64,000 nt of DNA. Origin: Nanobdellota archaeon (GTDB lineage Archaea > Nanobdellota > Nanobdellia > Pacearchaeales > GW2011-AR1). Below are positions 2,292 through 62,479 of this stretch, one piece after another. Location of the stretch: contig JANLHN010000003.1 of the NCBI GenBank assembly GCA_024654505.1, forward strand, positions 4,314 through 68,313, written 5' to 3'. The first letter of the stretch is position 1, and each line of letters opens with the position of its first letter. The translations under genes and the position numbers were made by a program. The notes beneath the pieces were generated by a model. It was not told the origin of the DNA and made no database searches. It saw only the letters and a program-made list of their open reading frames with translations.

Positions 2292-3152
2292 ATGAAAAGA
2301 GGATTGGCTTTTATAGGGCTATTTATAGTTGTCTTTTTATCATTGGTTGTTAGCGCAGAGAGCAGAGAAATATCTCAATTTTCTACTTATTATAATGATA
2401 ACATCGCGGGAACGTCTTCTGTTGATAGGATATTTGGAAATCAAAGAATAGATGTTTATCTTGATGAAGAATTGTCTTATCATTTGATTACTTCAGAAGG
2501 AAAGATTATTGAAGAGGGAAATGGTGGAGTCGAGAAGCCATCACTTAATATTTATGTTGGTAGCGGTGTTCTTAATGAGTTAATGGAAGGTACTTTAGAT
2601 TTTCAAGAGGCATTGGCCACTGGAGGGATTGAGTATAGGGGTGTTGGTTTCATTTCTAATATCAAGTTTAGAATTCTCCATTTTTTCCAAAACCTATTTG
2701 TTAAACCAAAGGCTCCTAAAAATGAGATTAATGATTTGGGTTCAGAGTGTGGGAATAATAAATGTGAGGCTGGAGAGAATCCAAAGAATTGTTATAATGA
2801 TTGTTGTGGAACTTGTGGAGATGGAAAATGTAAGGGATATAGTTGTGGTGAAGACAATCCTTTAAGTGAGAAGTATTGTCCCAAACAAACGGGTGGAGAT
2901 TGCGGGAACATTTGTGGCGATGGAACCTGTGATAAGGGAGAAAATCCCCAAGAATGTCCTGCAGACTGTGATTGGATAAAGTGTGGCGATGGAATATGCT
3001 CTCCTGGAGAAGATGATTCGTTAAGTGATAAGTATTGTCCTAAACAAACGGGTGGAGATTGTGGAAACATCTGTGGCGATGGAACCTGTGATAATGGAGA
3101 GAACTTTAGGGAATGTCCTGGAGATTGTAAGATTGTAATGGGGTTTGATTGA
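2292..3152 (+). CDS. secreted Cys-rich repeat protein; N-terminal signal/TM followed by tandem CGDGTCDxGEN..ECPxDC repeats
   Basis: Hydrophobic N-terminus. Three or more near-identical ~40-aa Cys-rich repeats (KYCPKQTGGDCGNICGDGTCD). Confidence 0.6.
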   Translation: MKRGLAFIGLFIVVFLSLVVSAESREISQFSTYYNDNIAGTSSVDRIFGNQRIDVYLDEELSYHLITSEGKIIEEGNGGVEKPSLNIYVGSGVLNELMEGTLDFQEALATGGIEYRGVGFISNIKFRILHFFQNLFVKPKAPKNEINDLGSECGNNKCEAGENPKNCYNDCCGTCGDGKCKGYSCGEDNPLSEKYCPKQTGGDCGNICGDGTCDKGENPQECPADCDWIKCGDGICSPGEDDSLSDKYCPKQTGGDCGNICGDGTCDNGENFRECPGDCKIVMGFD

Positions 3153-3302
3153 AAAAACAAGTTTTTATAATCATTTAATTATGTTTTATTATGGTGATTA
3201 AAACCATTGTATTCGACATCGAGGGAGTGATGTCTATGGAAAATATGTGATTGTGTTTTTAACCACAATAATTCTTTTAAACCTATAATTGGTTTGTTTT
3301 TC

Positions 3303-3758
3303 ATGGCAGGAGATAGAGAAGTTAGCGATATTGAGAAATTGATGGCTAGATCAACAATTAATTTTCCTAGATCAATTGATCATAAAGAAGTTGGTGGCCT
3401 TTTAACTCATGTGGCCAGAGGAATTGGACCTGCTACAACAATTAATTATCGAGTTTCAAGTAATGAGAATATTGTTCCTGAAAGAAATAATTTGGGGAGT
3501 CTTACTGGGAAACATATTTCTGACCCAGGATCTGCAACGACTAGTGGAAATATATCTACTTCCTATGGTGAAGGAAGTGGAGCTGAACTTGCTATAATAT
3601 CTTTTGATTTAAAGAGAGAACATAGAACAGATATTAGAGGATATGATTCAATGAAATTCTTTACAACACCTGGTTATTCTTTAGAAGAACTTAATCCTAC
3701 TGAGTTGAGGTTGATGGATAATGTCCGAGCCCAAGTTAGAGGGTGGTTTGGTGTTTAA
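3303..3758 (+). CDS. hypothetical protein (ATG start; leaderless behind a conserved promoter)
   Basis: The ORF has a conserved CACAATAATTCTTTTAAACC promoter 38 nt upstream of the ATG. The same module precedes the genes at 15293 and 62180. Confidence 0.5.
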   Translation: MAGDREVSDIEKLMARSTINFPRSIDHKEVGGLLTHVARGIGPATTINYRVSSNENIVPERNNLGSLTGKHISDPGSATTSGNISTSYGEGSGAELAIISFDLKREHRTDIRGYDSMKFFTTPGYSLEELNPTELRLMDNVRAQVRGWFGV

Positions 3759-5972: not shown

Positions 5973-7050
5973 CTTTTGTATACCTGTCCTTGAGGTCTCC
6001 TGGTTTAACTAGGTTTCTAAAACACATAGGGTCTTTATTCATAAAATCTCCTGTTGTTGCATATGCTATTGCTCTACATCCCTTACAGTGAGAAACATAT
6101 TCACAACCAAATTCTTTTTTTAAACGCTCCAAATCTCTTAAATCTTTCATGACTTTCTTTTCTGTGATAAGCCTAACTAGTCCTTCACTAATATGCCCTA
6201 TCTCTATTGGGAGTCTTCTACATGGATAAACTACTCCATTAGAAAGAACTGCAACTCCTGAAAATCCTGCACCACAACCCCCTAAATATTTTCCTTTTTC
6301 TCTAGAAGCCTCTTTTAAAGGGTCATCACAATGCATTAAGTGCCATAAGACTTCTGTTTCGAGGAGAGATATTTTATCTCCATATCTTTCTTCTAATTCT
6401 CTTTGGACCTTATAAATATCATACATCCCTTTTGCATCAATAAATTCGGGGTCATTAACTCCCAGCTCTCTTGTTGGAACATAGGACTGAATTCCAAATA
6501 TATCTGCTCCAGCCTCTATAGAATCTTTTATGGCCTGCTCAATATGGTCTTTGTTTGATTGCATGGCTGTAAAAGAGACTGTAACTCCTATATCTTCTGC
6601 CCGACAATTAGCAATACCTTGCATAGCCCTATCAAAGGCATAGGGTCTTTGTCTTACATCATTATGCCTTTCTCTGTCTCCATCAACTGAAATTTGTAAT
6701 CTTTTTATTCCTCTTTCTTTCAATGCTCTTGCTTTTTCAGGTGTTATTAGGGTTCCATTAGTAAGAATTTTTGTGGCTACACCCCTTTGTTGAGTATACT
6801 CTAAGATTTTAAATAAATCCCTTCGCTTTAGAGGTTCTCCACCAGAAATGTGAAACCTTGGGTCCATACCCCATCTTTGAGATGTATCTACAAGATCATC
6901 AACCATGTCTTCTACTTCGGAGAGACTCATTAAGTCAGAGTCTTCTTGTCTATGGGCTTTTTCACCCTTTTCATTATGGTAACAATGGCGACACCTAAGA
7001 TTACAATCATTTGTCGAATCCCATTGAATGAACAGTTGCTTTTTTGTCAT
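5959..7050 (-). CDS. radical SAM enzyme with C-terminal SPASM domain (peptide-maturase type)
   Basis: CNLRCRHC CxxxCxxC cluster at the N-terminus. The SPASM signature GGCGAGF..YPCRR..C..CKGCR..PMC is present. Confidence 0.8.
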   Translation of the reverse strand: MTKKQLFIQWDSTNDCNLRCRHCYHNEKGEKAHRQEDSDLMSLSEVEDMVDDLVDTSQRWGMDPRFHISGGEPLKRRDLFKILEYTQQRGVATKILTNGTLITPEKARALKERGIKRLQISVDGDRERHNDVRQRPYAFDRAMQGIANCRAEDIGVTVSFTAMQSNKDHIEQAIKDSIEAGADIFGIQSYVPTRELGVNDPEFIDAKGMYDIYKVQRELEERYGDKISLLETEVLWHLMHCDDPLKEASREKGKYLGGCGAGFSGVAVLSNGVVYPCRRLPIEIGHISEGLVRLITEKKVMKDLRDLERLKKEFGCEYVSHCKGCRAIAYATTGDFMNKDPMCFRNLVKPGDLKDRYTKDATS

Positions 7051-15253: not shown

Positions 15254-15273
15254 CACAATAATTCTTAAAAACC
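15254..15273 (+). promoter_or_regulatory. conserved leaderless promoter module CACAATAATTCTTAAAAACC (BRE/TATA)
   Basis: Near-identical 20-mers occur at 3265-3283 and 62141-62160. Each sits 38-39 nt upstream of an ATG. Confidence 0.5.
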
Positions 15274-15292
15274 TTGGATTGGTTTGTTTTTT

Positions 15293-15715
15293 ATGGCAGA
15301 AGATTTTGAAAGATTTAAATTGAAAACATATGATTTATGGGATTTATTTCTTCATGAGAGACAGTCTCCATACATCGGGAGGGCTTATGCCTGGGCAAGG
15401 AGACCTGAAGCAGATTTAGTTTCTGATGCTTCTAGAGGAGAGATATTGGAATTATTTGAAGTGGTTATTCCTGATTGGGAAAGAGCAACAAGGGAATTAT
15501 TTAGGCATGACAGATCTAATGTGGCGATACTCGGGAATGAAGCACCCCATCTTCATGCACATTTAATACCTCGATATCAAACATCTAGAACTTTCGCAGG
15601 GATAGATTTTGTTGACCCAAATCCTAGGGGAAATTATGCTCCCTACCCAAAAGTAGGTTTGGATGAAGCTGTTGTTTTTCAGATTAGAGATTTGATGAAG
15701 GGAAAACTTTCTTAA
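15293..15715 (+). CDS. HIT family protein (histidine triad hydrolase)
   Basis: HLHAHLIPR histidine-triad motif. Confidence 0.7.
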   Translation: MAEDFERFKLKTYDLWDLFLHERQSPYIGRAYAWARRPEADLVSDASRGEILELFEVVIPDWERATRELFRHDRSNVAILGNEAPHLHAHLIPRYQTSRTFAGIDFVDPNPRGNYAPYPKVGLDEAVVFQIRDLMKGKLS

Positions 15716-17589: not shown

Positions 17590-19158
17590 AGTATTTAGGT
17601 TTTGTGGAAACGGCCTTTACGGCCGTTTTTAACCCGGGGCTCCCGGGTTTGGTTCCAAGAGGGTTGTTGTGTTCTTTGTGTGCTGTATAGTGTACTATAA
17701 GATAAATAAAAAAATTCATCCAACATCAGCCCGCCCCCTCCTGGTAAAGAAACCCAGGGTAGGAGAGGGGGGGCGGGCTACGACGGACGAGGAGGGGTGA
17801 GCAGGGAACTTTCTCCTACTCCTCAGGACAACGAGACCCTCTAGGAGAGGGGGACCGACCTACCGTGCCATTCCATCCCGAGGGAGGGAAGGGAGGCGCC
17901 GTGGGAAGCGCAGGGCAGGGATGAAACGACCTTGGGGTTTGCCAAACCACCAAGACAGGAGGGTAGTCGGTCGTCGTGCTATTCTCACGACTTTTCCTGG
18001 TTTGAGCAGGGAGAGAGACCCACCAAGGGAGGAGAGGGCCTTGGCAAGTCAAGATGGGTTAGTCGCCCCCAGCAGCTTAGTCGCGCTGGATGCACGAAAT
18101 TGACGGGATGCTTCACCCGACAGGTGCTGGGGGCGACTGGGTACTGTCTCGATGAAACGGAACTTCCGCTCCACCGCACTTTCCCAAGATTTCTGGTGTC
18201 CCGCCGGTGTCACTTCCTTCCGTTTGGAGGGCCCTTTTGTCCCTTTGGATATCCTTCATCCTGAGTTTTTTTTACCCTTCCTTTCACAGTATGGGTTTTT
18301 TCTCAGAAGTAGGTTTTCCTCGGGGAGATTCTACGGATTTGTCCGCTTCCTCCCTCGCATCCGTGAGCAACACCGACGGGACTAGCCCTATCAAAGGGGG
18401 GAACCCACTACATGGCAAGGGTGTACCTCTAACCAGTTTGGAGAACCCCATTTAGCCACTTATCCCTTGCAGGGTGGTTAGGGTTCGCCTTACTAGCACG
18501 TGAGGCCAGTGCCTAGTTTTCCGGGATCGCCGCCAGTGTGATAGGACCATGGGTTTCAAGAAGGAACTACCGCCCCCTCAGTTCCCTTTTGGGCAACTTA
18601 CCCTTGGGGTACTGGGGCTTTTAGGGGGCGGTTTTGATGCCGAGTAGATAGGGTTCTCCGCCGCCAATACTTTCGTGTTAGACGGCGGACCCATCAGGTA
18701 AAGGAAAAGGTCTCGGTGTGCCGGCCCGCTTACCTACAACATCTAGGGGAGGAGACCTCTTGCTACGCGCGGTCGCTCAGAGTGCCGACCTGGGCGGAGG
18801 GTATGCCCACAAACACTACCTTCCAGACTCTCGTGGTGACCGAGGGGCGGAAGTGTGATTCTCATTGCGGGCTTCATTCGCTCCACAGGACAGAAGACAG
18901 GGGCGGACCGGCACGATTTTCAGGCCAGGTGGGTGAAGCTAAGACATTGCCGAAGACCTTGACAGGAAATGCACAAGACGACCCCACCTGGCCCTAGATT
19001 TCAGTGAGAAATACCTGAAACACCTCTCAGCGACGGACACAGCAACAACTAGAAATAGAATTCTTATTCGATTGCTCGAATCTTCTTCCTGGTTTCTGGT
19101 GTTGCTAGGAATCGTCGTTGGTGGTTCTAAGATGACGGGGTCATCGAAGGAAGGTGTG
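17590..19158. other. GC-rich non-coding block (about 1.5 kb) with no long ORF on either strand; structured RNA or decayed foreign DNA
   Basis: Only 60-110-codon ORFs on both strands. The 16S/23S universal motifs searched for were not found. A GC hairpin, CCCGCCCCCTCCT..AGGAGAGGGGGGGCGGG, lies at the left edge. The edge motifs match those of the 27-34 kb island. Confidence 0.4.
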
Positions 19159-29052: not shown

Positions 29053-30333
29053 CTAGGTGAGGGGGAACTCGAGCAGGTCCTTGGTCCAGTCGCCGTTCTC
29101 CATGATGACGACCTCGCGGCCGTCCTGGAGCGTGGCGGTGATGATGGTGTCCATGTCCGAGACCATGACGTCGTGGTGGGTGTTGGACATGTTGCAGCCG
29201 ACTTCCTTCTTCTCCTTGTTGCCCATCTTGTCACCACCCCGGAGAGCGGTGGCGTAGGCCATGCCGGTGGCGACGTGGCACGACGCGTTCTCGTCGTAGA
29301 GCGTGTGCTGGTAGACGCGACCGGTCTGGAAGATGGGGGAGCGCTTGACGGCCACGAGAGCCACCTCGCCGAGGAAGCGAGCTCCCTCGTCGGTGTCCAC
29401 CATCTTCTCGTACGAGTCGAGGTTGTTGCCCTCGATCTTGACGAGCTTGCCCTCCTTGAAGTACAGGACGAGGTTCTCGACCTTGTTGCCGTGGACGATG
29501 CTGGGGCGCGTGCAGCGCAGGACGCCGTTCGCGGTCCGCAGGTCAGGGGTGGTGAAGGTCTCGAACGTGGGGATGTTCAGGGTGACCATCTTGCCCTTGG
29601 CCGTGTCCTTCTTCGCCGAGATCCACTCGTGCTTGGGATGGAAGCCGACGGTGAAGTCGGTTCCCTCGCCGGCGTAGTGGAGGTTCGTGATCCGCATCGC
29701 GTTGAGGCGGGCCGTGACATCCATGAGGGTGTCGACATGTGCGTCCCAGAGCTTGAGGCAGTTGGGCGAGTCGGCGAATGTGAATGAGAAGACGTCGTCC
29801 CAGAGGGCGGCGACAGCCTCGTCCGTCGGGAGGTCCGGGAAGACCTTGGCGGCCCATCCCGGAGAGGGCGGGCCGGCGAGACACCATGCCACCATGCGGC
29901 GGTTGATGCCTTCTTCGCGCCAGCGGTTCAGGAGCGTCATCGTCGTCGTCGTGTAGGCCTGCATCTCCTCTTCGAGGCCCTTGAAGACGTCGGGGTGGTT
30001 CTGGCTTCGGAAGCCCAGGAAGCACCCTTGGGTCTCGATGACGCGTTCCATCTGGATCCGCCGCCACGTGTGTACGAGGTTGCGGTCCTGCTCGGGGGCG
30101 TGGCGCAGCTGGATTGCGGTCAGCATCTCGGAGCCGAACCGGTGGTCCACGTTGCGTGCCCCCAACTTGTAGGCCACCTCGGAGGCCATCTCGGCGAGTC
30201 TGACGTCGGACTCTTCGAAGGCCACGACGACGAACTCTCCTTCTTGGACGTTGAGGCCACGCCTCACGATCAGCTCCACGTAGTTGCGGAGTTTCTCATC
30301 GAAGCTCAGGACCTGGGTCTCTTGGACACTCAT
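29053..30333 (-). CDS. M29 family aminopeptidase (AmpS/aminopeptidase T-like)
   Basis: MSVQETQVLSFDEKLRNYVELIVRRGLNVQEGEFV is a typical M29 N-terminus. The internal ATG with a GGAGGAAGG RBS is chosen over the 24-codon upstream extension. Confidence 0.7.
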   Translation of the reverse strand: MSVQETQVLSFDEKLRNYVELIVRRGLNVQEGEFVVVAFEESDVRLAEMASEVAYKLGARNVDHRFGSEMLTAIQLRHAPEQDRNLVHTWRRIQMERVIETQGCFLGFRSQNHPDVFKGLEEEMQAYTTTTMTLLNRWREEGINRRMVAWCLAGPPSPGWAAKVFPDLPTDEAVAALWDDVFSFTFADSPNCLKLWDAHVDTLMDVTARLNAMRITNLHYAGEGTDFTVGFHPKHEWISAKKDTAKGKMVTLNIPTFETFTTPDLRTANGVLRCTRPSIVHGNKVENLVLYFKEGKLVKIEGNNLDSYEKMVDTDEGARFLGEVALVAVKRSPIFQTGRVYQHTLYDENASCHVATGMAYATALRGGDKMGNKEKKEVGCNMSNTHHDVMVSDMDTIITATLQDGREVVIMENGDWTKDLLEFPLT

Positions 30334-30430
30334 GTGTCTAATTTCCTTCCTCCGTCTGCATACCTCACGCGAGGTTCCGGGCTGCGGACCGGCTATCCTA
30401 AACACCTGTTCAAGATAGGTTGCATTAAGG

Positions 30431-30502
30431 GCTCTTCGTCCCTCCGGCCGAAGAGCTTGTTGTAGAATTGTGGCTGAGCCCTATTTGTATAGCACCGGGC
30501 CC
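30431..30502. repeat. 72-nt intergenic module (hairpin GCTCTTCG..CGAAGAGC plus TATACAAATAGGG), copy A
   Basis: Copy B at 33617-33686 is about 90% identical. Confidence 0.6.
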
Positions 30503-30530
30503 GGGGGTGCTTGTCGGCGTTCGGTTCCGG

Positions 30531-33470
30531 CTAGTCGCGCCGGCCGGTGTTGGGACGCGCGGCCATGATGGCCTCCACGAGTCCTTCCCAGCCCGGCACG
30601 TTGCCGAACACCTTCTGGATGGTCTGGGCCGTCTGGTCCTTGCCGAACATGGCGATCGGCGCACACATCTGTGCGATTTCGGCGAGGACCTTCTTGTCGC
30701 CCAGGTCCTTGAGGGCCGGAGCGATCTTCTCGGACATGACGGAGACGAGAGCGTTGGTGATGTCGCCGTCGTTCTTGGCCTCCTGGAGACGGCGCTCGAG
30801 CTCGATGCCACCCACGCGGAGGTTCTCCTCCGTCTGGGCCTTCTTGCGCTCGAGTTCCGCTGCCGCGATCTTGCTGTGGCTCTCCTGCTCGGCCAGCTTG
30901 GCTTCCAGGCGCTCCTTCTCGTGAAGGATCTCCGCCTGGAGCTGCTTCTCCTTGAGAGCCACGTCGGCCTGGAGCTGCTTCTCCTTGAGAGCCACGTCGG
31001 CTTCCGCCATCGCAGCCTTGAGAGCCACGTCGGCTTCCAGCTTCGTGGTGGCCAGCTTGGCCTCCCTCTCCGCCGCCACCTTCTTCATCGCGAAGTTGGC
31101 GTCGTCTTCGAAGGTCCTCTGGTCCAACTTGTCTTCCTGGTCCTTCTTCGCCATCGCGGTCTTGGCACCGATCTCGGCGAGTGCGAGCGACGTCCTGCGC
31201 TCGATCTCCTCCTCCTTCAGTTCCGCGATCGCCCTTGCGGTCTTGGCCCTTTCGTCTTCCTTGCTGCGCTCGATCTCCTCCAGCTTCGTGGTGAGCTCGA
31301 GTTCTCTGCGAGCGGCCTTCAGCTTGAGAGTGCCGGTGACGGCCTCCAGCTCCGCCGCACGCAGTTCTTCTCCTACCGTTCCGTCGACGATGCGGATCGC
31401 TTCGATCTGCACCTCCTTGATGTGCATCCCGTTCTCCGGGAAGGTGCGGCCGGGACGCTTGCCGTCTGCGCCCTGCTTCCCGATGATGGCGTCCCTGACG
31501 ATGTTGATGCCCACATCGTGCATCTCCTCGACCGAGTGGGTCGAAGCGATGTTCCGAAGGAGGCTCCGCATCGTGGCGACGAGCAGCTGGATGTAGTTCT
31601 CGACTGAGAACCAGAGATCCTTGTGCTCCTTCAGGAAGTCCACCGTGTAGGCGATGCGGACCTTGAACTGGACGAAGTCCCTCGTCTCGACCGTGACCTC
31701 GTCTGAGACGGGGTTGTTGGCGATGCGGAGGTACACGTCCTCCTTGACCTTGTCGTCGGTCTTGGGGGTTCCGGTGAGCAGCTTGAAGATGGTGACGCCT
31801 TCGTCGTACTCAAGGAGTACGGTTTCCGGACCCACCACGACCTTCTGCTCGCCCGTCTTGGAGGTCACCTGGACAGCGTATCCCTCGTAGACCGAGACGC
31901 CCACGGCGCCCTGGAACCTCGTGTCGAGCTTGAGACTCCGGGGAGGAGTGAATGCACCGCGACGGCTGATCTCATCACCGGCGAACTTCTCCTCGGCGTG
32001 GCTGCCGATGGGGGCAGCGTAGGCCTCTTCGCAGAACTCCTCCGAGCCCCTCCGACGACCAGCGGTGAACGAGGCCGCCCGCAGCATCGCGGACTGGCTG
32101 CCCATTGCCTTGGAGATCTCCCGGAGTTGCCGGTTGTGCACCTGCGCTTCCATGTTGCCGGGGAAGAGCAGGTTGACGAGGCGGTCGGTCAGACCCCTCA
32201 CGATGTGGACCTGCCTGCGGGGGTCCGCCAGGAAGAGCTTCGGACCGCGGATGAGAGTTATGGTCCCCTCAACCTTGTCCAGGACGTATCGACCCTCACC
32301 CTTCGGGATGATGACGGCGAAGTGCTTCTCCTGCTTCTCGCCGCTCTCGTTCTCGTAGGTGATGACCGCGTGCTCGGGTCGGGGGAAGTAGATCTTCGTG
32401 TCCCTCCCCGTGATGAAGAGCTCTTCACCCTTCGTGTATGTCCTTCCGTTCTCCGTGTACTCCTCGATGACCTTGACGTGGATGCCCATGTCATCGTTGA
32501 GCTCGATCGCGCGGAAGACGCGGCTGCCCTCGTCGCTGGTGACGAAGGTCTCGGTGCTCTTGGGGAACACCACCCTGGGACCGCGGAGGAAGCGCTTCTC
32601 GCCGTTCTCGCCGAGGAGCACGCAGAACTCCATGGTTTCCAGAGTCACGGCCGAACGGACGTACTTCTCCTTCCCGTCCTCGGGGATGACGCGACCGCCG
32701 GTCGGCGGGATGAAATAGGAGTACACTGTGCCCTTGATGACGACCCGCTGGCCGCGTGTGTAGGCGGCCTGCTCGAGTTCGTCTTCGGGTTCTCCGGCGG
32801 AAGGCTCTTCCGAAGAGGTGTTACCACCTTCGTCGTCGCCATCGTCGCCATCGAGCGTGGGCTCGGTGTCTTTGATGCTCTGCTCGCCGCCGCCGGTCTG
32901 CCCTCCACTTCCGGTCTGCTCGCCGCCGCCGGTCTGCCCGTGCCTGGTGCTGCTCTGCTCGGATGTGGGGACGACCCGGTCGATGACCGCGGTCTTCATG
33001 CCCTCCTCGAACTGCTCCGGGTTCGTGATCTCGAGAACCAGGAACTCGTTCGTCTTGAGGACGTGTCCCGGGACGACCTGGACCTTCTGGCCAGGCCACA
33101 GCGGGATGGAGATGGGGCCGGGGATGTTGACGGTCTTGCCCACCTCCAGTCGTTCCCCCGAGTTCTTCGTACCGGTCTCCGGGAGCTTCCGGTTGCTGAT
33201 AGGGGTAGGGTTTGCCAGCACCAGGTAGGACTTCTCGTCAGCCGTGGCGAATCGCTGCTTCGCCTTGTCCGCCGGCGCCTCCACGAACCTGTCGTCTCCG
33301 TCCAGGACGACGACCTTGTCGTCGCTGGTGAGGTTGACCAGGCAGGGACCGACCCAGACCCGGACATCTCCCTTTTTGGTGTCCTGCACCCAGATGAACT
33401 CGTTGGGTGCCAGGGGAATCTCCAACTCTCTTGGAGTTGTTCCCCTCCTCAGGTCCTGCTCTCCGTTCAT
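30531..33470 (-). CDS. Major Vault Protein homologue (MVP repeats, shoulder domain and a coiled-coil cap helix)
   Basis: Shoulder-domain matches to metazoan MVP: [24 protein letters not shown] against [45 protein letters not shown] against [22 protein letters not shown], and WFSVENY..RNIAS..EEMHD..IVRDAI. A long E/K/A-rich helix sits at the C-terminus. Confidence 0.8.
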   Translation of the reverse strand: [979 protein letters not shown]

Positions 33471-33475
33471 GTCTA

Positions 33476-33615
33476 ACTTCTTTCCGCTCTTGCGAGCATG
33501 AGCCTACTCTCTTCCCACGAGATTACACAATGAGTGTTTTCTCGCTTGACTTCTTGCACCATGCAAGTTCCTGGGCTTAGAACCAGGCGCACCTTGGAAG
33601 GTGTGGTGGGTTAGA
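33476..33615. repeat. 140-nt 5' leader/promoter module, copy 1 (upstream of the MVP gene)
   Basis: Near-identical (2-3 mismatches) to 34343-34483. It contains the inverted repeat TTGCA-CCA-TGCAA. Confidence 0.7.
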
Positions 33616-33616
33616 G

Positions 33617-33686
33617 CGCTCTTCGTCCCTCCGGCCGAAGAGCTTGGTTGTAGAAATGATGGGCCCTATTTGTATAGCACCGGGCC
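33617..33686. repeat. 72-nt intergenic module, copy B
   Basis: See 30431-30502. Confidence 0.6.
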
Positions 33687-33710
33687 CATTGGTGCACGCC
33701 GTCGCCGAAG

Positions 33711-34337
33711 CTACGGGTTCTTGACTGGGGCGGCGATACCTGCGGGTGTCTTCCCGGGAGGGGTGGCCGCGGGTGCCTGACCGACTCCGGCAGGGGTCCG
33801 CTGGATGGGCTGGGCTCCCTTTGGGTCCTCTCCGCGGGGGTCCACCTTCTCCATCTTGGCGAACTCGAAGTCCGTCGTCCAGATGGTCATGTTGTCGTCT
33901 CCTCGCCGGAGGAACTTGGCGTCCTTCGTCGTGAACTCCAGCCACAGCGGACAGCCGTTCCGGAACAGGTTGCACAGGTTCTCTGCGGTGGCCTTGTCGA
34001 CTTGCTGTTCGCAGCGGATTCGCTGCTCGCTCGCGTCGTAGGCCTCGAACCAGATGTTGACTGGGAGTTCCTTGCCCTTGATGATCCGGATGGCTCCCAC
34101 GTTCCATCCGTCGAGGGTCCACTCTCCCGAGGTGGGGAGGGAGGAAGTGTAGACGACCGGGGCCGGCCTGGGGGCGGGCACCGGAGCCGGAACAACAGGG
34201 GTCGGGGCCGGAACGACTGTCAGGGTCGTGGTCGGCCGGTCGAGAGCGTGGCGGTCGCAGTTCTGGTGGCGATCGGTCATGCACCCGGTGAGGGTCAGGC
34301 TGGCGATGAGGGCCAGTGCGAACAGGATGCGCTTCAC
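33711..34337 (-). CDS. lipoprotein (signal peptide with lipobox LTLTGC)
   Basis: MKRILFALALIASLTLTGC, a Pro/Ala-rich linker and a GTG start. Confidence 0.55.
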   Translation of the reverse strand: MKRILFALALIASLTLTGCMTDRHQNCDRHALDRPTTTLTVVPAPTPVVPAPVPAPRPAPVVYTSSLPTSGEWTLDGWNVGAIRIIKGKELPVNIWFEAYDASEQRIRCEQQVDKATAENLCNLFRNGCPLWLEFTTKDAKFLRRGDDNMTIWTTDFEFAKMEKVDPRGEDPKGAQPIQRTPAGVGQAPAATPPGKTPAGIAAPVKNP

Positions 34338-34342
34338 GGGAT

Positions 34343-34483
34343 TCTTCCTTCCGCTCTTGCGAGCATGAGCTTACTCTCTTCCCACGAGATTACACAACGA
34401 GTGTTTTCTCGCTTGACTTCTTGCACCATGCAAGTTCCTGGGCTTAGAACCAGGCGCACCTTGGAAGGTGTGGTGGGTTAGAG
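34343..34483. repeat. 140-nt 5' leader/promoter module, copy 2 (upstream of the lipoprotein gene); ends exactly at the island/host boundary
   Basis: See 33476-33615. Confidence 0.7.
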
Positions 34484-34884
34484 TGACTTCTTATTTCTAT
34501 CAAGAACTAGGACTCAAGTAGTAACATATAGGTATTTCACTGATTTACCGACGTGAAATTGGTGATTTCTCGACGGAAAACCCTGTCTTTAGTAAAGCTC
34601 TAGCTACATAGAAGAATGATACCCTTTGTTGAAATCGGTTATTTCTAACTGATTTCGAGGGTGTTCCGCTGTGTTTCTGGAGTGTCGCTAAGGTGAAATA
34701 TGTGGTACGAAGAACGACAGATGTCGTTCGAGCGGTATGCTTTCGCATTATGTTACTACTTTTGTATGAATATTTATAAAAAAACCCCTTTAAAAATCTT
34801 TCGATTATGTTGTCCTTTAATAGTGACAGAGGATTAGGAGATTCCTATAATTTTGGATGTTAATAGTTAGAAATATTGGTCTTT

Positions 34885-35595: not shown

Positions 35596-35677
35596 AAAAA
35601 TCATAGGTCTCTTTTACTTTTAAACTTTGTTAGAAAGAGTTTTAAATATGTATTAACTAAATAAATCATGAAATTAT

Positions 35678-35730
35678 GACTTCATTGAAGTTTCATGTTT
35701 CAATTTATTAAAGGAGAAGACAAAAATATG
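35678..35730 (+). promoter_or_regulatory. conserved leader module GACTTCATTGAAGTTTCATGTTTCAATTTATTAAAGGAGAAGA..ATG (palindrome ACTTCA/TGAAGT plus SD)
   Basis: The same module lies upstream of the genes at 39655 (minus strand) and 47557. Confidence 0.55.
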
Positions 35731-36405
35731 AAAAAGAAGTTAATATTGTTGGTATTTGTTTTTTTATTAATTCTCCCCATTATTTTTGCTCAAGAGAGTG
35801 ATCCTCCCGTGGCTGGTTCGGGTGACTCAGGTGAAAGTGTTGTGACTGATGGAGAAGGAGTTAATTTAGTTGATAAATCAAAAGAACTTGGGAGTAATTT
35901 ATTTGATAAATCAAAAGTATCATTTCCTATAGAAATCTCTGTTCCTAAATGGATGCAGTCTGGTTCTGAAATTATATTTAAAGTGACCTCAGGGGATAAC
36001 TTAAGTATCTTTTTATTTATTGTTTTAATAGGCATATTTATTATTGTTTTTTCAATTCTTCAGAATGTTATTCACTTATTTACTCCATCTTCTGGAACCA
36101 TTTCAAGTGTAGTTTCCTTGGTGTTTACTCTTGTCCTTTCTTTCTTTGGAATTATAAAATCCTTGGCTCTTTCATTGTTTAGCTTTAAAAGTGAAAGTCT
36201 TGGTACCTTTCCTTCAATCTTAGTGATTCTAGGAGCTATAGGGCTTTGTTTTCTCCTCCATATTGTTGTAAATAAGGTTGTGAGAAAGAAAAAGATAGGA
36301 GATGCCATAGATGAAGGAACTGCTGCCGGAACTCAGATGTCTAAGTTAAAGGCCATGGCAGAAGTACAAGAGGTAGTAAATGATGGTACAATGGGTCCTC
36401 CATAG
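35728..36405 (+). CDS. secreted/membrane protein (signal peptide, acidic Gly/Ser region, four TM)
   Basis: ATG MKKKLIL behind AAAGGAGAAG. The upstream MFQFIKGED extension is a conserved leader, not protein. Confidence 0.5.
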   Translation: MKKKLILLVFVFLLILPIIFAQESDPPVAGSGDSGESVVTDGEGVNLVDKSKELGSNLFDKSKVSFPIEISVPKWMQSGSEIIFKVTSGDNLSIFLFIVLIGIFIIVFSILQNVIHLFTPSSGTISSVVSLVFTLVLSFFGIIKSLALSLFSFKSESLGTFPSILVILGAIGLCFLLHIVVNKVVRKKKIGDAIDEGTAAGTQMSKLKAMAEVQEVVNDGTMGPP

Positions 36406-39385: not shown

Positions 39386-39655
39386 TTAATCATCACTGCT
39401 TCTTTGGTAGGCTACAATTTTTCTATTTTTTCCTTCTCCTTCATAAATAGGAACTTCTCTTGCGGCCTGGTTTCCTCCAGACCCTCCCATTAGAGAGAAT
39501 AAAACTCCAACGACGATTAGGATAACTCCAGCTATTGTTATTATCATAGGACTTATGGTGTTCAGGATTGCCCATTCAAGTTTGAATGTTCCAAAACCTA
39601 TAGCCATTATCACTAAGCCAGATATTGCGATTGTATAGCTCACCCACTTTTTCAT
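39386..39655 (-). CDS. small membrane protein (three TM)
   Basis: ATG MKKWVSY behind the conserved leader module. Confidence 0.45.
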   Translation of the reverse strand: MKKWVSYTIAISGLVIMAIGFGTFKLEWAILNTISPMIITIAGVILIVVGVLFSLMGGSGGNQAAREVPIYEGEGKNRKIVAYQRSSDD

Positions 39656-39802
39656 ATTTTCATCTTCTCCTTTGATAAATTGAAACATGAGACTTCAATG
39701 AAGTCACTTTTCATATTTTATACTAGTCTAAGTTATTTATAAAACTTTGTTTAAGTCATCCTAAAGTATATTTTCTAGACTAAAAATATATATAAAGCAC
39801 TT

Positions 39803-40014: not shown

Positions 40015-43000
40015 CTAAAGCACAACTATCAAGATAATTATAACTATAAGAATTATGATTCCAATTATTAGGAATTTAAGGATTATTGGTAAGATCCCTT
40101 CGTTTGCTGTTGATGCTGTGGATGCTGTAGGGCTTTCACTATTGTCTTTATCAAGGGCAATTGAGTTTCCAGTTATTAATCTGGTTGTTGTTTCTCCACT
40201 ACCTAATATAATTGAATCCCCTGCGTTCAATACAATTGGTTCAATAGTTTTAACCTGGAGTTGTGGGATTATTTGATCATTAAAGTCTCCACAATTTCCC
40301 TCAATACATTGGCCGCTGTTTCCACCACTTGATGTGCTTCTGCTGTTTGAAGAACTTTTATATTCTCGATTGTCCTGACTATTAATACATCCAGAATCTA
40401 CCATGTCGATATCTCCATCTCCGTCGTTGTCGATTCCATCTTGACATTGTGCCATAGGATTTGTTTCATCATTGTCTGTAGCACTTGAGCATCCAAAGTC
40501 TGCTAAGTCTATGTAACCATCTCCGTCATTGTCAATTCCATCAGAACATTGTGGGGTTGTTGGAGGAATGGTATTTGTTTCATTATCATCATCCCAAGCA
40601 GAACATCCCATGTCTAATTGGTCTATGAATGAATCTCCGTCATCATCTAGACCATTAGAACATTGGTATGTTAAGTTGTTATTCACTTCATCATCGTCCA
40701 TTGAAGATGAACATCCAAAGTCTGCAGGGAAGTCTATTGAACCATCCCCGTCGTTGTCAATTCCATCTGAACATTGGTGAATATGAGAGTGATCCATTTC
40801 GTCATTATCCGAAGCATTCATACAGCCTGGGTCCGCGGGGAAATCAATTAATCCATTCCCGTCGTTGTCAGTTCCATCTGAACATTGAGGGGTTGTTGGA
40901 GGAATGGTATTTGTTTCATTATCATCATCCCAAGCAGAACATCCAGCATCAAGTTGGTCTATGAACGAATCTCCGTCATTGTCAGTTCCATCATTACATT
41001 GGAATGTTCCATTGTTTGTTTCATCATCGTCTGTAGCACTTGAGCATCCAAAGTCTGCTAGGTCTATGTAACCATCTCCGTCATTGTCAGTTCCATCAGA
41101 GCATTGATAATTTCTTACTAATATTGTTCCAACATTCACAGTTGCTGAATTATTACTTGGGTCAGTTGCAGTCATGTTTAGAGTGTAGTCTCCTACAGAC
41201 AATCCAGCAGGTATAATATATAGGACAGGCAAACTAGAGTTATTTGGAATGCTTGTTGGTCCTTGGGTGTTCACGAGGGTGCCGTTGCTATCATAAAGGT
41301 TAAATGTGATGTCTATAAGGTATTCTGAGCTATCAAAATCTACTGAAAGGTTTTGACTTTGTCCAAAGTTTGTTAGGGGTAATGAGGGAATTGTAAGAAT
41401 ATTAGATATTACAGGAGCTGTTACATCCTTAGATTCGTCATCATCTGTTGCGATAGAACAACTAGGGTCTGCTAAATCAGTTACACCATCTCCATCATTA
41501 TCAACACTATCTTGACATTGCGTTGTTGCTGAACTTTCGTTGTTTCCTTGATTTGTTGAACATCCAGGGTCTGCTAAATCAGTTACACCATCTCCATCAT
41601 TATCAACACCATCTTGACATTGGGCAAGAGGATTTGTTTCGTTGTTATCTGTTAGTGCCGAACATGAGAAATCATTTGGATAATCTGTTGCATTGTCTCC
41701 ATCATTATCAATTCCGTCTTGACATTGGGAGGTTGCTGTTGATTCGTTGTTTCTTGTCTTATTATAAGTACTTGGGTTTGTAACATCTGTCCAACATCCA
41801 GGGTCTGCTGTATCTGTTAAGGAATCCCCATCATTATCAACACTATCTTGACATTGTGTTGTTGCAGAGCCTTCGTTATTCCCTTGGTTTGTTAGGCAAC
41901 CAGGGTCAGCTAAATCAGTTACACCATCTCCATCATTGTCAATACCATCTTGACATTGTGTAAGGGGTGTGCCTTCTGTTGCGTCGTTTGCGCTTGAACA
42001 TGAAAAGTCATTTGGATAATCAGTTACACCATCTCCATCATTATCAATTCCATCCCTACATTGTGGAATTAAACTACATTGCCAAACCTTTACAATAACC
42101 TTCCCTTCTCCATTCCTGTTGTCAGTTATTGGTGTGTCTTTTATCCATACCCAAACATTGTTAGATAGCCAGCTACTATATGTTATGTTTGCGAATTGTA
42201 GGGCTCCTGCGTTTGCAGATTGTGCGGCTGATGCGTTTTTGTAATAGGCATCTTCTCCGAGGAAAAATCCGTTATAGTTGTTTGAACTAGTTTTGTATCT
42301 TACTTTTGCATCTGATAACCAAGTGTATCCATTTTTCCCACCAACATTTGTTGAGTCCTTATTATCAGAATTCCATCTACTCCATGCTCCAGAATATAAT
42401 TCAAATACATATTCTCCTACTGGAAGTTTGAATCCATTTCTTTGTGTGTCCCCTGCTGTGGCGGATTTTGTTGCATCTAGAGTTTTTGTTGTTTTAAGAA
42501 CCGCTTCGTATCCCGCGTCACAAATGTTTGTTTGGACACACTTTTGTATTCCTTCTCCGGGAATTCCCATATTTATCCTAGAAGCATACATTCCCCTTAG
42601 ATTCTTTTGGGGGTCTCTATTCTGGTTTACTGCAGTGATTCCCCAAGCAACTTGGCCATTTCCTTCGTCAGAATATACTGTGAAAGAATTTCCGCTTTTT
42701 CCTGCCAAAACAATTAGTCTACTATTAGAACTTATATTGTTTGCTGCTTTACAGATTATATGGCTTATGTGGTCGTCTCCAGAATCAACATAAATTACAC
42801 CAGTCATAATCTTCCCAGAACCACAAGAATTTTTTCCATCTACAGTAAGTTTTACTTTTGTTTCTGTATGGCTTACCAGAACTCCAGAGGTGTTCATACA
42901 TTTTAAGGCAGTTGCATGTCGGTCATCTTTATCATCCATTGCAAAACCACTAACAATCATGTTTCCAGGACACTTATATGTTCCAGAACCTTTTCCTTCC

Positions 43001-62127: not shown

Positions 62128-62179
62128 TTTATTATATTATCACAATAATTCTTAAATACCTTCACTACTCTTTGTTATT

Positions 62180-62479
62180 ATGTTAAATTATCTTGAAAGA
62201 TTCAGAGAAAAACTTGGGGATGATTGTTACTCTGAGGCATATAGAATCTTAAGAGATCACCCTGAAGTTATTCCTCGCCTCTCTGTTCCAGAAATTACTG
62301 GGATTCTTGTCACTTTTGATAAGGGGTTTATGAGAGGGGCATCCGCATATTTAGTTGAAAGGGCAAGAGAATCTAAAACTCCTAGGGAAATGGAAGAGAT
62401 TAGGAAAAACCGCTCGATTGCTCGTCTTTTAATGGAGATTGTAGGAGAATCTGGAGGGGATTTTTGTGATAGCACTTAA
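62180..62479 (+). CDS. hypothetical protein (leaderless, conserved promoter 62141-62160)
   Basis: ORF plus promoter module. Confidence 0.45.
   Translation: MLNYLERFREKLGDDCYSEAYRILRDHPEVIPRLSVPEITGILVTFDKGFMRGASAYLVERARESKTPREMEEIRKNRSIARLLMEIVGESGGDFCDST

Follow-up and report, generated by a model that had tools for sequence, protein, structure and literature searches.

The 64,000-nt stretch of contig JANLHN010000003.1 of a Nanobdellota archaeon (GenBank assembly GCA_024654505.1), in the following called the window, contains a GC-rich island with genes for a lipoprotein, a major vault protein (MVP) homologue, an M29 aminopeptidase and a Cys-rich protein, and the locus raises the question why the same noncoding sequences recur between these genes. 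The first-pass annotation of this DNA had proposed a shared regulator, a riboregulator or small RNA, or a cassette-like assembly of the island. The answer that is favoured here, with some reserve, is that the modules would be RNA elements, i.e., intercistronic units of a hairpin, a twister-type ribozyme and a ribosome-binding site (RBS), which are predicted to cut one long transcript, rather than shared promoters. The whole case comes from one genome.

The repeats themselves were verified and delimited. The sequence of about 140 nt that had been described ahead of the MVP and the lipoprotein genes (module A) was indeed present in two copies of 140 nt (A1, 33477-33616; A2, 34344-34483), which are 98% identical and differ at three positions. 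The 72-nt module that had been described next to the MVP and the aminopeptidase genes (module B) turned out to consist of two conserved blocks, namely the hairpin GCTCTTCGTCCCTCCGGCCGAAGAGC, which is identical at 26 of 26 positions (30431-30456 in copy B1 and 33618-33643 in copy B2), and the box GCCCTATTTGTATAGCACCGGGCCC, identical at 25 of 25 positions (30478-30502 and 33663-33687), but the spacer of about 20 nt between hairpin and box has diverged and contains indels; the similarity reaches as far as about 30519/33704. A GC hairpin that had been reported to occur twice downstream of genes and ahead of tiny open reading frames (ORFs) for transmembrane (TM) peptides was also found (hairpin C; 27629-27683 and 28989-29043), with 82% identity and an identical core of 22 nt, and each copy is situated after a stop codon and before a Shine-Dalgarno (SD) sequence and a tiny ORF (27606-27469 and 28964-28869, respectively). 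Read in the sense of the transcript, module A lies 5' of each start codon and ends in an RBS, and module B lies 3' of each stop codon. Dinucleotide shuffles of the window contained zero matches for any of the three repeat cores, and a third copy of module A, module B or hairpin C was not present in the 64 kb.

The aminopeptidase leader was the first element that could be assigned to an RNA class. When the island (8 kb) was scanned sensitively against Rfam, the one match was to RF03160 (twister-P1), with 32.2 bits and E=6e-4; it covers minus-strand positions 30431-30348 and begins immediately after the B1 hairpin. Two covariance models were applied in addition. Model R1, built from five twisters recovered from metagenomes, ranked the aminopeptidase leader first in the whole window (24.3 bits, E=4e-5). 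Model R2, built from 74 natural twisters and no island sequence, matched it over its full length and with exact ends (35.2 bits, E=2.2e-8), and this was the sole significant match in 64 kb. A twister profile, for which 68 distinct natural twisters supplied the position weights and which had pairing terms (including the T1 pseudoknot), free spacers and penalised indels, gave 32.9 bits, a value that was reached by none of 1500 shuffled islands. The helices P1, P2 and P4 follow one another in canonical order, the internal loop between P1 and P2 contains the U-A dinucleotide of the cleavage site, and unconstrained minimum free energy (MFE) folding recovered P1, P2, P3, P4 and P5. T1 can be formed by the L4 loop GUCCGCAGCC and the 3' strand GACGG (CCG with CGG), in which a C-G pair of the consensus is replaced by G-C in a compensatory change. 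GACGG starts with G-A, and thus the catalytic G45 and the conserved A46 are present.

The same L4 loop and GACGG were also found in the natural phage twisters L296 and L330 (L numbers designate loci), the combination CCG/GACGG in L268, L291, L302, L311 and L352, and the dinucleotide AC in the L2 loop, as in the island, in L318 and L226; P5-type insertions were present in 6 of 49 natural twisters. Because every deviation from the consensus recurs in intact phage twisters, the aminopeptidase leader is, by sequence comparison, a genuine type-P1 twister of the natural CCG-C/GACGG subtype, and it adds a new member to a known ribozyme class.

The search for natural twisters was informative also in its own right. 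A degenerate DNA pattern applied to metagenomes recovered the canonical twisters L131, L133, L135, L136, L138 and L139/L140, and the recovered twisters reside in Mu-like prophage operons beside type II hammerheads. Against RF03160 canonical phage and metagenome twisters scored 51-62 bits, all below the gathering score of 67.2, and therefore annotation at the gathering threshold probably misses many phage twisters, including the whole subtypes CCG/GACGG and UCC/GAGGA. These T1 subtypes were represented by 7 and 21 distinct parsed phage examples, respectively (loci L131-L139 and L143-L473, from IMG/VR and metagenomes). Two of the contigs carry several ribozymes: L133 has three type II hammerheads and one twister between consecutive genes (1450-1515, 2166-2232, 3011-3077 and 6415-6476), and L138, a Mu-like prophage contig, has a twister and a near-threshold twister-sister (166-241 and 3032-3100).

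Next, the same class was considered for module A. The first 112 nt comprise P1 (NCUC), a U^AA loop, P2, P3, P4/L4, AAC and two hairpins at the site of P5, and the remaining 30 nt or so consist of a GNRA hairpin and the SD sequence. P2 (CCCA/UGGG) is the same as in the natural twister L131, and the framework of P1, U^AA, P2 and P4/L4 with the pattern G-U-NNN-A-A-G-C-C is present, the L4 loop UUCUAAGC being closed by a G-C pair. The palindrome TTGCA-N3-TGCAA lies at the position of the optional P5 stem of twisters. Structure prediction and covariation analysis, which had been proposed for the 140-nt leader, agreed with this layout: unconstrained MFE folding gave the same nested fold P1-P5 of the twister type (A2 z=-3.6, A1 z=-3.45; z=-2.7 to -3.6 over the island elements), and on a curated core alignment 92.8% of the cells were paired, versus 27-48% when the partners were slid; T1, P2 and P4 were 100% paired. 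T1 of module A consists of three Watson-Crick pairs (UCU with AGA), two of which are compensatory with respect to the consensus (C-G to U-A twice). It combines the natural variants UCC/GAGGA (21 examples) and CCU/GAAGG, and that such pair swaps occur can be seen from UCC/GAGGA, UCA/GAUGA and CCU/GAAGG, which are all natural variants. In mutagenesis T1 pairs were exchangeable with activity kept (PMC5113685). When a relaxed architecture descriptor was run over the window and 1.03 Mb of loci, its matches were confined to true twisters, the aminopeptidase leader and the two copies A1 and A2, and 3000 dinucleotide shuffles of the island yielded no match. With the twister profile module A reached 22.9 bits, and the best unrelated site 6.2 bits.

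Module A thus has, as far as can be read from its sequence, the twister architecture with a compensated T1 pseudoknot, and it is classified here as a divergent variant of the twister class for which catalytic activity is only predicted. Descent of module A from a twister is regarded as quite likely. The riboregulator that had been offered as one explanation was right in spirit, in that the leaders are structured RNA elements of the twister type. At the level of the primary sequence only the RBS ends of module A and the aminopeptidase leader align, and 54 of 2,000 shuffles gave an alignment that was as good.

The arrangement around the two kinds of elements was compared with that of natural phage twisters. 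Of 50 such twisters 52% have a stable hairpin (-12 kcal/mol or stronger) directly against P1, versus 10% at random positions of the same contigs, and in 35 of 49 an SD sequence and a start codon are no more than 60 nt downstream (median 25 nt). Since the B hairpins abut P1 and the SD sequence and start codon follow as in natural twisters, the best reading is that the junctions of B with A and of B with the aminopeptidase leader reproduce the hairpin-twister-RBS unit of phages. An optional P0 stem is reported in 21% of twisters (PMC6154101), and the B hairpin may correspond to it. In the first unit, A2, host DNA takes the place of module B.

Several observations weigh against this reading, most of them against the place of module A in it. 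The Rfam scan that had been proposed revealed the twister-P1 in the aminopeptidase leader, but module A had no Rfam match at E<=10, and with R1 and R2 only a local match to P4/L4 was obtained (9 bits, E~3), which is not significant. Parts of the architecture descriptor were designed after module A had been seen. With the profile, 20 of 1500 shuffled islands also reached the 22.9 bits of module A, which gives an island-wide p of only ~0.013. The core alignment behind the pair counts was curated by hand, since MAFFT had misplaced the rows of module A, and A1 and A2 count as a single observation because they are 98% identical. Module A has an additional P4 pair and an insertion of about 50 nt, and its P2 can be drawn in two registers, i.e., as CCCA/UGGG without G45, or as c+CCAC/GUGG with GAAGA intact and one extra C on the 5' side. 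T2 is incomplete everywhere: depending on the register L2 of module A is CC or CA and allows at most one pair, and with L2=AC of the aminopeptidase leader only C14-G30 can pair. The L2 guanine is replaced by A in the aminopeptidase leader and by C in module A, so that none of the three elements has an intact T2 pair G13-C31. For the twister Osa-1-4 it was found in vitro that any substitution of this guanine, G13, is not tolerated (PMC5113685). Furthermore, the B box and hairpin C fall outside the twister model, and a relative of the A type was not found in the viral contigs or the JGI metagenomes that were searched. In detail, the B hairpin and a 22-mer of the module A L4 had 0 matches in viral contigs, the A core with free P3 had 0 matches in JGI metagenomes, and the A-type L4 had 3 matches in viral contigs, none of which was twister-like. 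A loose pattern gave at least 120 chance matches over genome contigs and served as a negative control only. A lack of conservation in other copies had been named as a refuting outcome, and the result was mixed: the architecture is widely conserved in phage operons, but of the modules themselves no other copy was found in the viral and JGI metagenome collections.

The same observations are the basis of the main competing explanation, namely that the elements are twister-derived relics from a donor or a mobile element that no longer cleave and are at most passive structured leaders and stem-loops. The A and B copies would then stem from recent recombination or duplication, e.g., a Campbell-type insertion of A-lipoprotein-B at A, and direct repeats in the order A-gene-B are the expected trace of such a homologous insertion. 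A broken T2 in all three elements, together with the intolerance of G13 towards substitution, fits relics, and so does module A with its P2 register defect, to which covariance models are blind. Moreover, the 98% identity of A1 and A2 is no evidence of selection, and their three differences lie outside the helices, which has a chance of about 0.1. However, T1 was kept by compensatory double changes in both element types, including a G-C flip without a wobble intermediate, which argues for selection on the tertiary fold after the divergence from the consensus. The variants of the aminopeptidase leader, including L2=AC, recur in many intact phage twisters, the core outside P1 is 84-89% identical to unrelated phage twisters, and P3 is wholly different yet paired. 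Relics are therefore considered unlikely, albeit the least unlikely of the rivals. At the other extreme, module A could be an active and hitherto undescribed twister variant without T2, in which the two-hairpin P5 domain replaces T2 or makes cleavage dependent on a ligand or a protein (a natural aptazyme); together with the downstream twister it would form an insulator and processing kit that lets a promoterless bacterial-type operon, the vault-protein gene included, be expressed from any upstream promoter once it has been transferred into an archaeon with leaderless mRNAs. This extension is speculative and rather improbable.

Another possibility was control at the level of the DNA, i.e., that module A is a promoter/operator with TTGCA-N3-TGCAA as the site of a dimeric repressor, and module B a terminator or a promoter with a TATA-like box. 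The perfect palindrome in A and the AT-rich sequence TATACAAATA in B would fit, and the same sequence ahead of two genes would co-regulate them. A host promoter weight matrix was built from 58 host genes. The host start signal consists of an A-rich B recognition element (BRE; AAA) at -34 to -32 and TTTAWAAA at -29 to -22, counted from the ATG, and SD sequences are not enriched. Because BRE and TATA box are positioned relative to the ATG itself and SD enrichment is lacking, the host mRNAs are mostly leaderless. The matrix recovered the neighbouring host promoters at 27406-27390 (9.1 bits, ATG predicted at 27370) and 34803-34787; beside the latter a second TATA-like sequence, TTTATAAATA, is present at 34780-34771. 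In contrast to the 8-10 bits of real host promoters, modules A and B reached only 1.0-1.4 bits at best, and no host-type promoter of at least 6 bits was found inside the island on either strand. A consensus scan detected no sigma-70-like site on the minus strand in modules A, B or hairpin C. The hairpins of A, B and C are not followed by a U tract and thus are not intrinsic terminators. The palindrome occupies P5 of a fold that is backed by MFE and covariation, and module A includes the RBS and stops only 6 nt short of the start codon, as transcribed leaders typically do. The idea of a shared regulator or promoter could thus not be upheld, and control at the DNA level is very unlikely.

In the preferred reading, i.e., processing by RNA elements, the transcript would enter from outside. 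The coding strand of the island contains one oligo-T run of at least 4 nt, and the island genes have leaders of 100-150 nt that end in GGAGG or GGAAGG, unlike the leaderless host mRNAs. As the island has no host-type promoter, almost no oligo-T and long leaders, it is probably a single polycistron that is read from the host promoter at about 34.79 kb. The island would be read through as one RNA from this promoter, and the elements would cut it at U^A, i.e., at 34480|34479, 33613|33612 and 30427|30426. The upstream message would end in the B hairpin with a 2',3'-cyclic phosphate and be guarded from 3' exonucleases, and the downstream message would have a 5'-OH and a folded leader at its start, with the SD sequence exposed. 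Gene expression would be uncoupled from the upstream context, in a host with leaderless mRNAs. Module A may cleave slowly or not at all, in which case it would be only a structured insulating leader; the compensated T1 argues against pure decay, and the broken T2 against full activity. Processing of polycistrons has been suggested, not proven, for bacterial twisters and hammerheads (PMC6765202).

The island is defined by its composition: about 7 kb (27410-34484) have about 62% GC (58-64%), within a genome of about 35% GC (32-39%), and all its genes are on the minus strand. The order in the transcript is A2, lipoprotein gene, B2, A1, MVP gene, B1, a 97-nt leader, aminopeptidase gene, C2, tiny ORF, Cys-rich gene, C1, tiny ORF and terminal hairpin; coordinates are given in Table 1. 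PolB and FEN1 encoded in the window have relatives in Pacearchaeota/Nanoarchaeota at 72-78% identity. In two related contigs (L128 and L129), which have a flat GC content of 0.36-0.41, orthologues of the island-flanking genes are directly adjacent (a 73-aa TM protein with 51% and a 239-aa membrane protein with 34-36% identity), and in a third relative other genes occupy the site. By this comparison the site is thus variable and the insertion specific to the lineage. An AT-rich spacer of 400 nt (34484-34884) separates the island from the upstream host gene and is missing in the relatives, whose flanking genes abut. Within this spacer there are TATA-like boxes, an oligo-T terminator and an ORF in leaderless style for 67 aa of basic character (34748-34545) with a perfect 9-bp hairpin, CGAACGACA-UC-UGUCGUUCG.

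The island MVP and aminopeptidase have no relative above 46% identity (42-46%) among 5.8 billion protein clusters, and for MVP the nearest relative other than itself is 42% identical and the named relatives are bacterial; the donor of the island is thus unsampled. The nearest relatives of the two proteins are not neighbours of each other, and no twister is present there. Scans of the island proteins against phage, defence and NCBIfam families gave no useful match. In MVP, low-complexity insert(s) rich in Gly/Gln and in acidic residues are located near residues 175-235, and the tail is a coiled coil whose DNA has 33-nt repeats (30922-31052). The Cys-rich protein (27690-28781) has CxxC-rich repeats of about 50 aa (DNA periodicity of 150 and 306 nt) after a helical N-terminus; its only family match is a weak hint of a RING-like domain in Pfam (E=0.004).

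Table 1. Features of the island and its upstream promoter, listed in the order of transcription. Positions refer to the window; functions of RNA elements are predictions.
Feature	Position	Strand	Characteristics
Nearest host-type BRE/TATA promoter on the island coding strand	34787..34803	-	9.3 bits; just outside the island; putative driver
A2 twister-like domain	34373..34484	-	P1 ACUC, U^AA, P2, P3 CACCU-UCCA-AGGUG, P4/L4 CCUGG-UUCUAAGC-CCAGG (34454-34437); two-hairpin insertion of ~50 nt at the P5 site, GUGG|GAAGA|GAGU; predicted cleavage between 34480 and 34479
A2 3' part	34344..34372	-	GCUC-GCAA-GAGC (GNRA) hairpin and SD GGAAGGAAG; ends 6 nt before the lipoprotein GTG
Lipoprotein gene	33711..34337	-	208 aa; lipobox LTGC; GTG start; no family match
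B2 box	33663..33687	-	GGGCCC stem, AU-rich loop (GGUGCUAUACAAAUA); not a host promoter
B2 hairpin	33618..33643	-	GCUCUUCG-GCCGGAGGGA-CGAAGAGC; abuts P1 of A1 (P0-like), gap 0; -15.5 kcal/mol
A1 twister-like domain	33506..33617	-	P4/L4 at 33587-33570; predicted cleavage between 33613 and 33612
A1 3' part	33477..33505	-	GNRA hairpin and SD GGAAAGAAG, ahead of MVP ATG 33470
MVP homologue gene	30531..33470	-	979 aa; ATG at 33470; Pfam MVP_shoulder 1.9e-22, Vault_3
B1 box	30478..30502	-	Identical to B2 box
B1 hairpin	30431..30456	-	Abuts P1 of the aminopeptidase twister (P0-like), gap 0; -12.1 kcal/mol
Type-P1 twister	30348..30431	-	P1 CC(C)U, U^AA, P2 UGCA, L2 AC, 11-bp P3, P4/L4 CCGG-UCCGCAGC-CCGG; P5 CCUC-GCGU-GAGG, UGCA, GACGG, AGGA overlapping the SD; predicted cleavage between 30427 and 30426
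M29 aminopeptidase gene	29053..30333	-	426 aa; Pfam 3e-115; nearest relative 45-46% identical
Hairpin C2	28989..29043	-	GC stem of 12 bp, one mismatch; 3' of the aminopeptidase stop; intercistronic stem-loop
Tiny TM ORF 2	28869..28964	-	31 aa from GTG; SD AGGAG upstream; from sequence reading
Cys-rich repeat protein gene	27690..28781	-	363 aa; GCGGAAGGAAGAAUC-AUG ahead, same RBS block as module A2
Hairpin C1	27629..27683	-	11-bp all-GC stem; z=-3.7
Tiny TM ORF 1	27469..27606	-	45 aa; holds the only coding-strand oligo-T run >=4 of the island (27577-27572)
Strong terminal hairpin, island 3' end	27414..27452	-	z=-3.5; the next host gene's promoter (27406-27390) follows directly

The modular look of the island had led to the idea of cassette-like assembly. 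The A-gene-B layout does fit it, the gene-C-tiny-ORF units look modular as well, and the 5' end of A2 coincides with the island boundary (34483/34484). As a separate explanation, the modules would then be recombination sites of a cassette system or small mobile repeats, i.e., attC-like sites, miniature inverted-repeat transposable elements (MITEs) or repetitive extragenic palindromes (REPs), that built the island gene by gene. However, no integrase or transposase is encoded among the ORFs of the island or its flanks, terminal inverted repeats are missing, and no other copies were found in the collections searched. Module B was checked as an integron attC site by reading of its sequence and was rejected, because it has neither the R''-L''/L'-R' symmetry nor GTTRRRY cores. 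Recombination sites are thus only a slight possibility, even more doubtful than control at the DNA level. Finally, an assembly artefact (a chimeric insertion or mis-duplicated repeats) is hardly credible: the source is a metagenome-assembled genome, a block of 62% GC in a contig of 35% GC is unusual, and an exact-protein search with MVP gave no independent contig, but the repeat copies differ by substitutions and indels, which argues against collapsed repeats, a host promoter lies just upstream of the island and that of the next host gene right after the terminal hairpin, and as both flanks are syntenic with the relatives an artefact would need two precise misjoins.

Processing by RNA elements invites comparison with known systems. 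With the type-P1 twister (RF03160) the island elements share P1, the U^AA loop, a 4-bp P2 (in module A in either of its two registers, only one of which keeps G45), P3, the P4 loop G-U-NNN-A-A-G-C-C, T1, the 3' strand G-A-NNN and the optional P5. In contrast to it, all three lack the L2 guanine of T2 and all have P5, which is reported in about 1% of twisters; module A adds a P4 pair, about 50 nt at the P5 site and one nt 5' of P2, and is below detection by the covariance models. Twister reviews described bacteria and eukaryotes (PMC5408937, PMC6154101), whereas the island elements reside in an archaeal genome. Intercistronic ribozymes of phages and prophages (type II hammerheads and twisters; Mu-like; PMC6765202, PMC8782182) are similar in that a hairpin abuts P1, several occur per operon, and they are placed in leaders about 15-35 nt before the SD sequence and start codon. 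Unlike these operons the island has no phage genes, the flanking genes encode a vault protein, a peptidase, a lipoprotein and a Cys-rich protein, and the host is a DPANN archaeon with leaderless mRNAs.

There are two further analogies. In synthetic insulators of the RiboJ type a self-cleaving ribozyme between a promoter-derived leader and the RBS removes the upstream context. At the junction of host and island A2 would act alike; this analogy is functional, and in contrast to RiboJ the island elements are natural, belong to another ribozyme class and have a putative insulating activity. REP-like sequences and other intercistronic stabiliser stem-loops are known in bacterial operons. Hairpin C and the B hairpins resemble them as stable GC stem-loops after stop codons without a U tract, but they occur in only two copies each in the window and do not appear to form a genome-wide family, and B is physically coupled to a ribozyme.

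The window has some additional features outside the island. Three host genes share a 62-nt upstream block that starts with CACAATAATTCTTWAAAACC (3264-3325, 15254-15315 and 62141-62202). A stretch of about 1.3 kb (17720-19000) has 52-60% GC and no ORF over 110 aa, in a genome of 35% GC. AT-rich, promoter-like sequence directly precedes the long GC hairpin with which it starts (GCCCGCCCCCUCC...GGAGAGGGGGGGCGGGC); relatives have a 291-aa gene there. A 16S gene or an Rfam RNA was rejected for this stretch (17.7-19.0 kb), the best match being a human lncRNA model with E=0.046. Possible identities are a large structured RNA and a second foreign insert that has decayed. The gene at 40358-42063 contains many tandem-like repeats of about 100 nt that encode Asp/Cys-rich units (...DNDGDG...C...), and its product is probably a repetitive surface or calcium-binding-type protein. 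A 60-nt inverted repeat with 93% complementarity (35677-35736 and 39647-39706) surrounds a block of about 4 kb with paralogous membrane-protein genes, each arm holding the initial codons of a gene together with promoter-like sequence; the block also has direct repeats of 300 nt and 169 nt (36719/37733 and 37380/38379).

Taken together, twister-type RNAs were placed in an archaeal genome by horizontal transfer, beside a rare prokaryotic vault-protein gene. The operon is promoterless, and its major gene junctions are all occupied by such elements, three in number, each between a hairpin upstream and an RBS downstream; their cleavage sites can be predicted to the nucleotide. If module A is active, T2 and a strict P2 geometry would be dispensable, and as current covariance models miss module A, the sequence space that can be searched for twisters would be wider. 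For the role of bacterial twister and hammerhead ribozymes the island offers a compact test case outside of phages.

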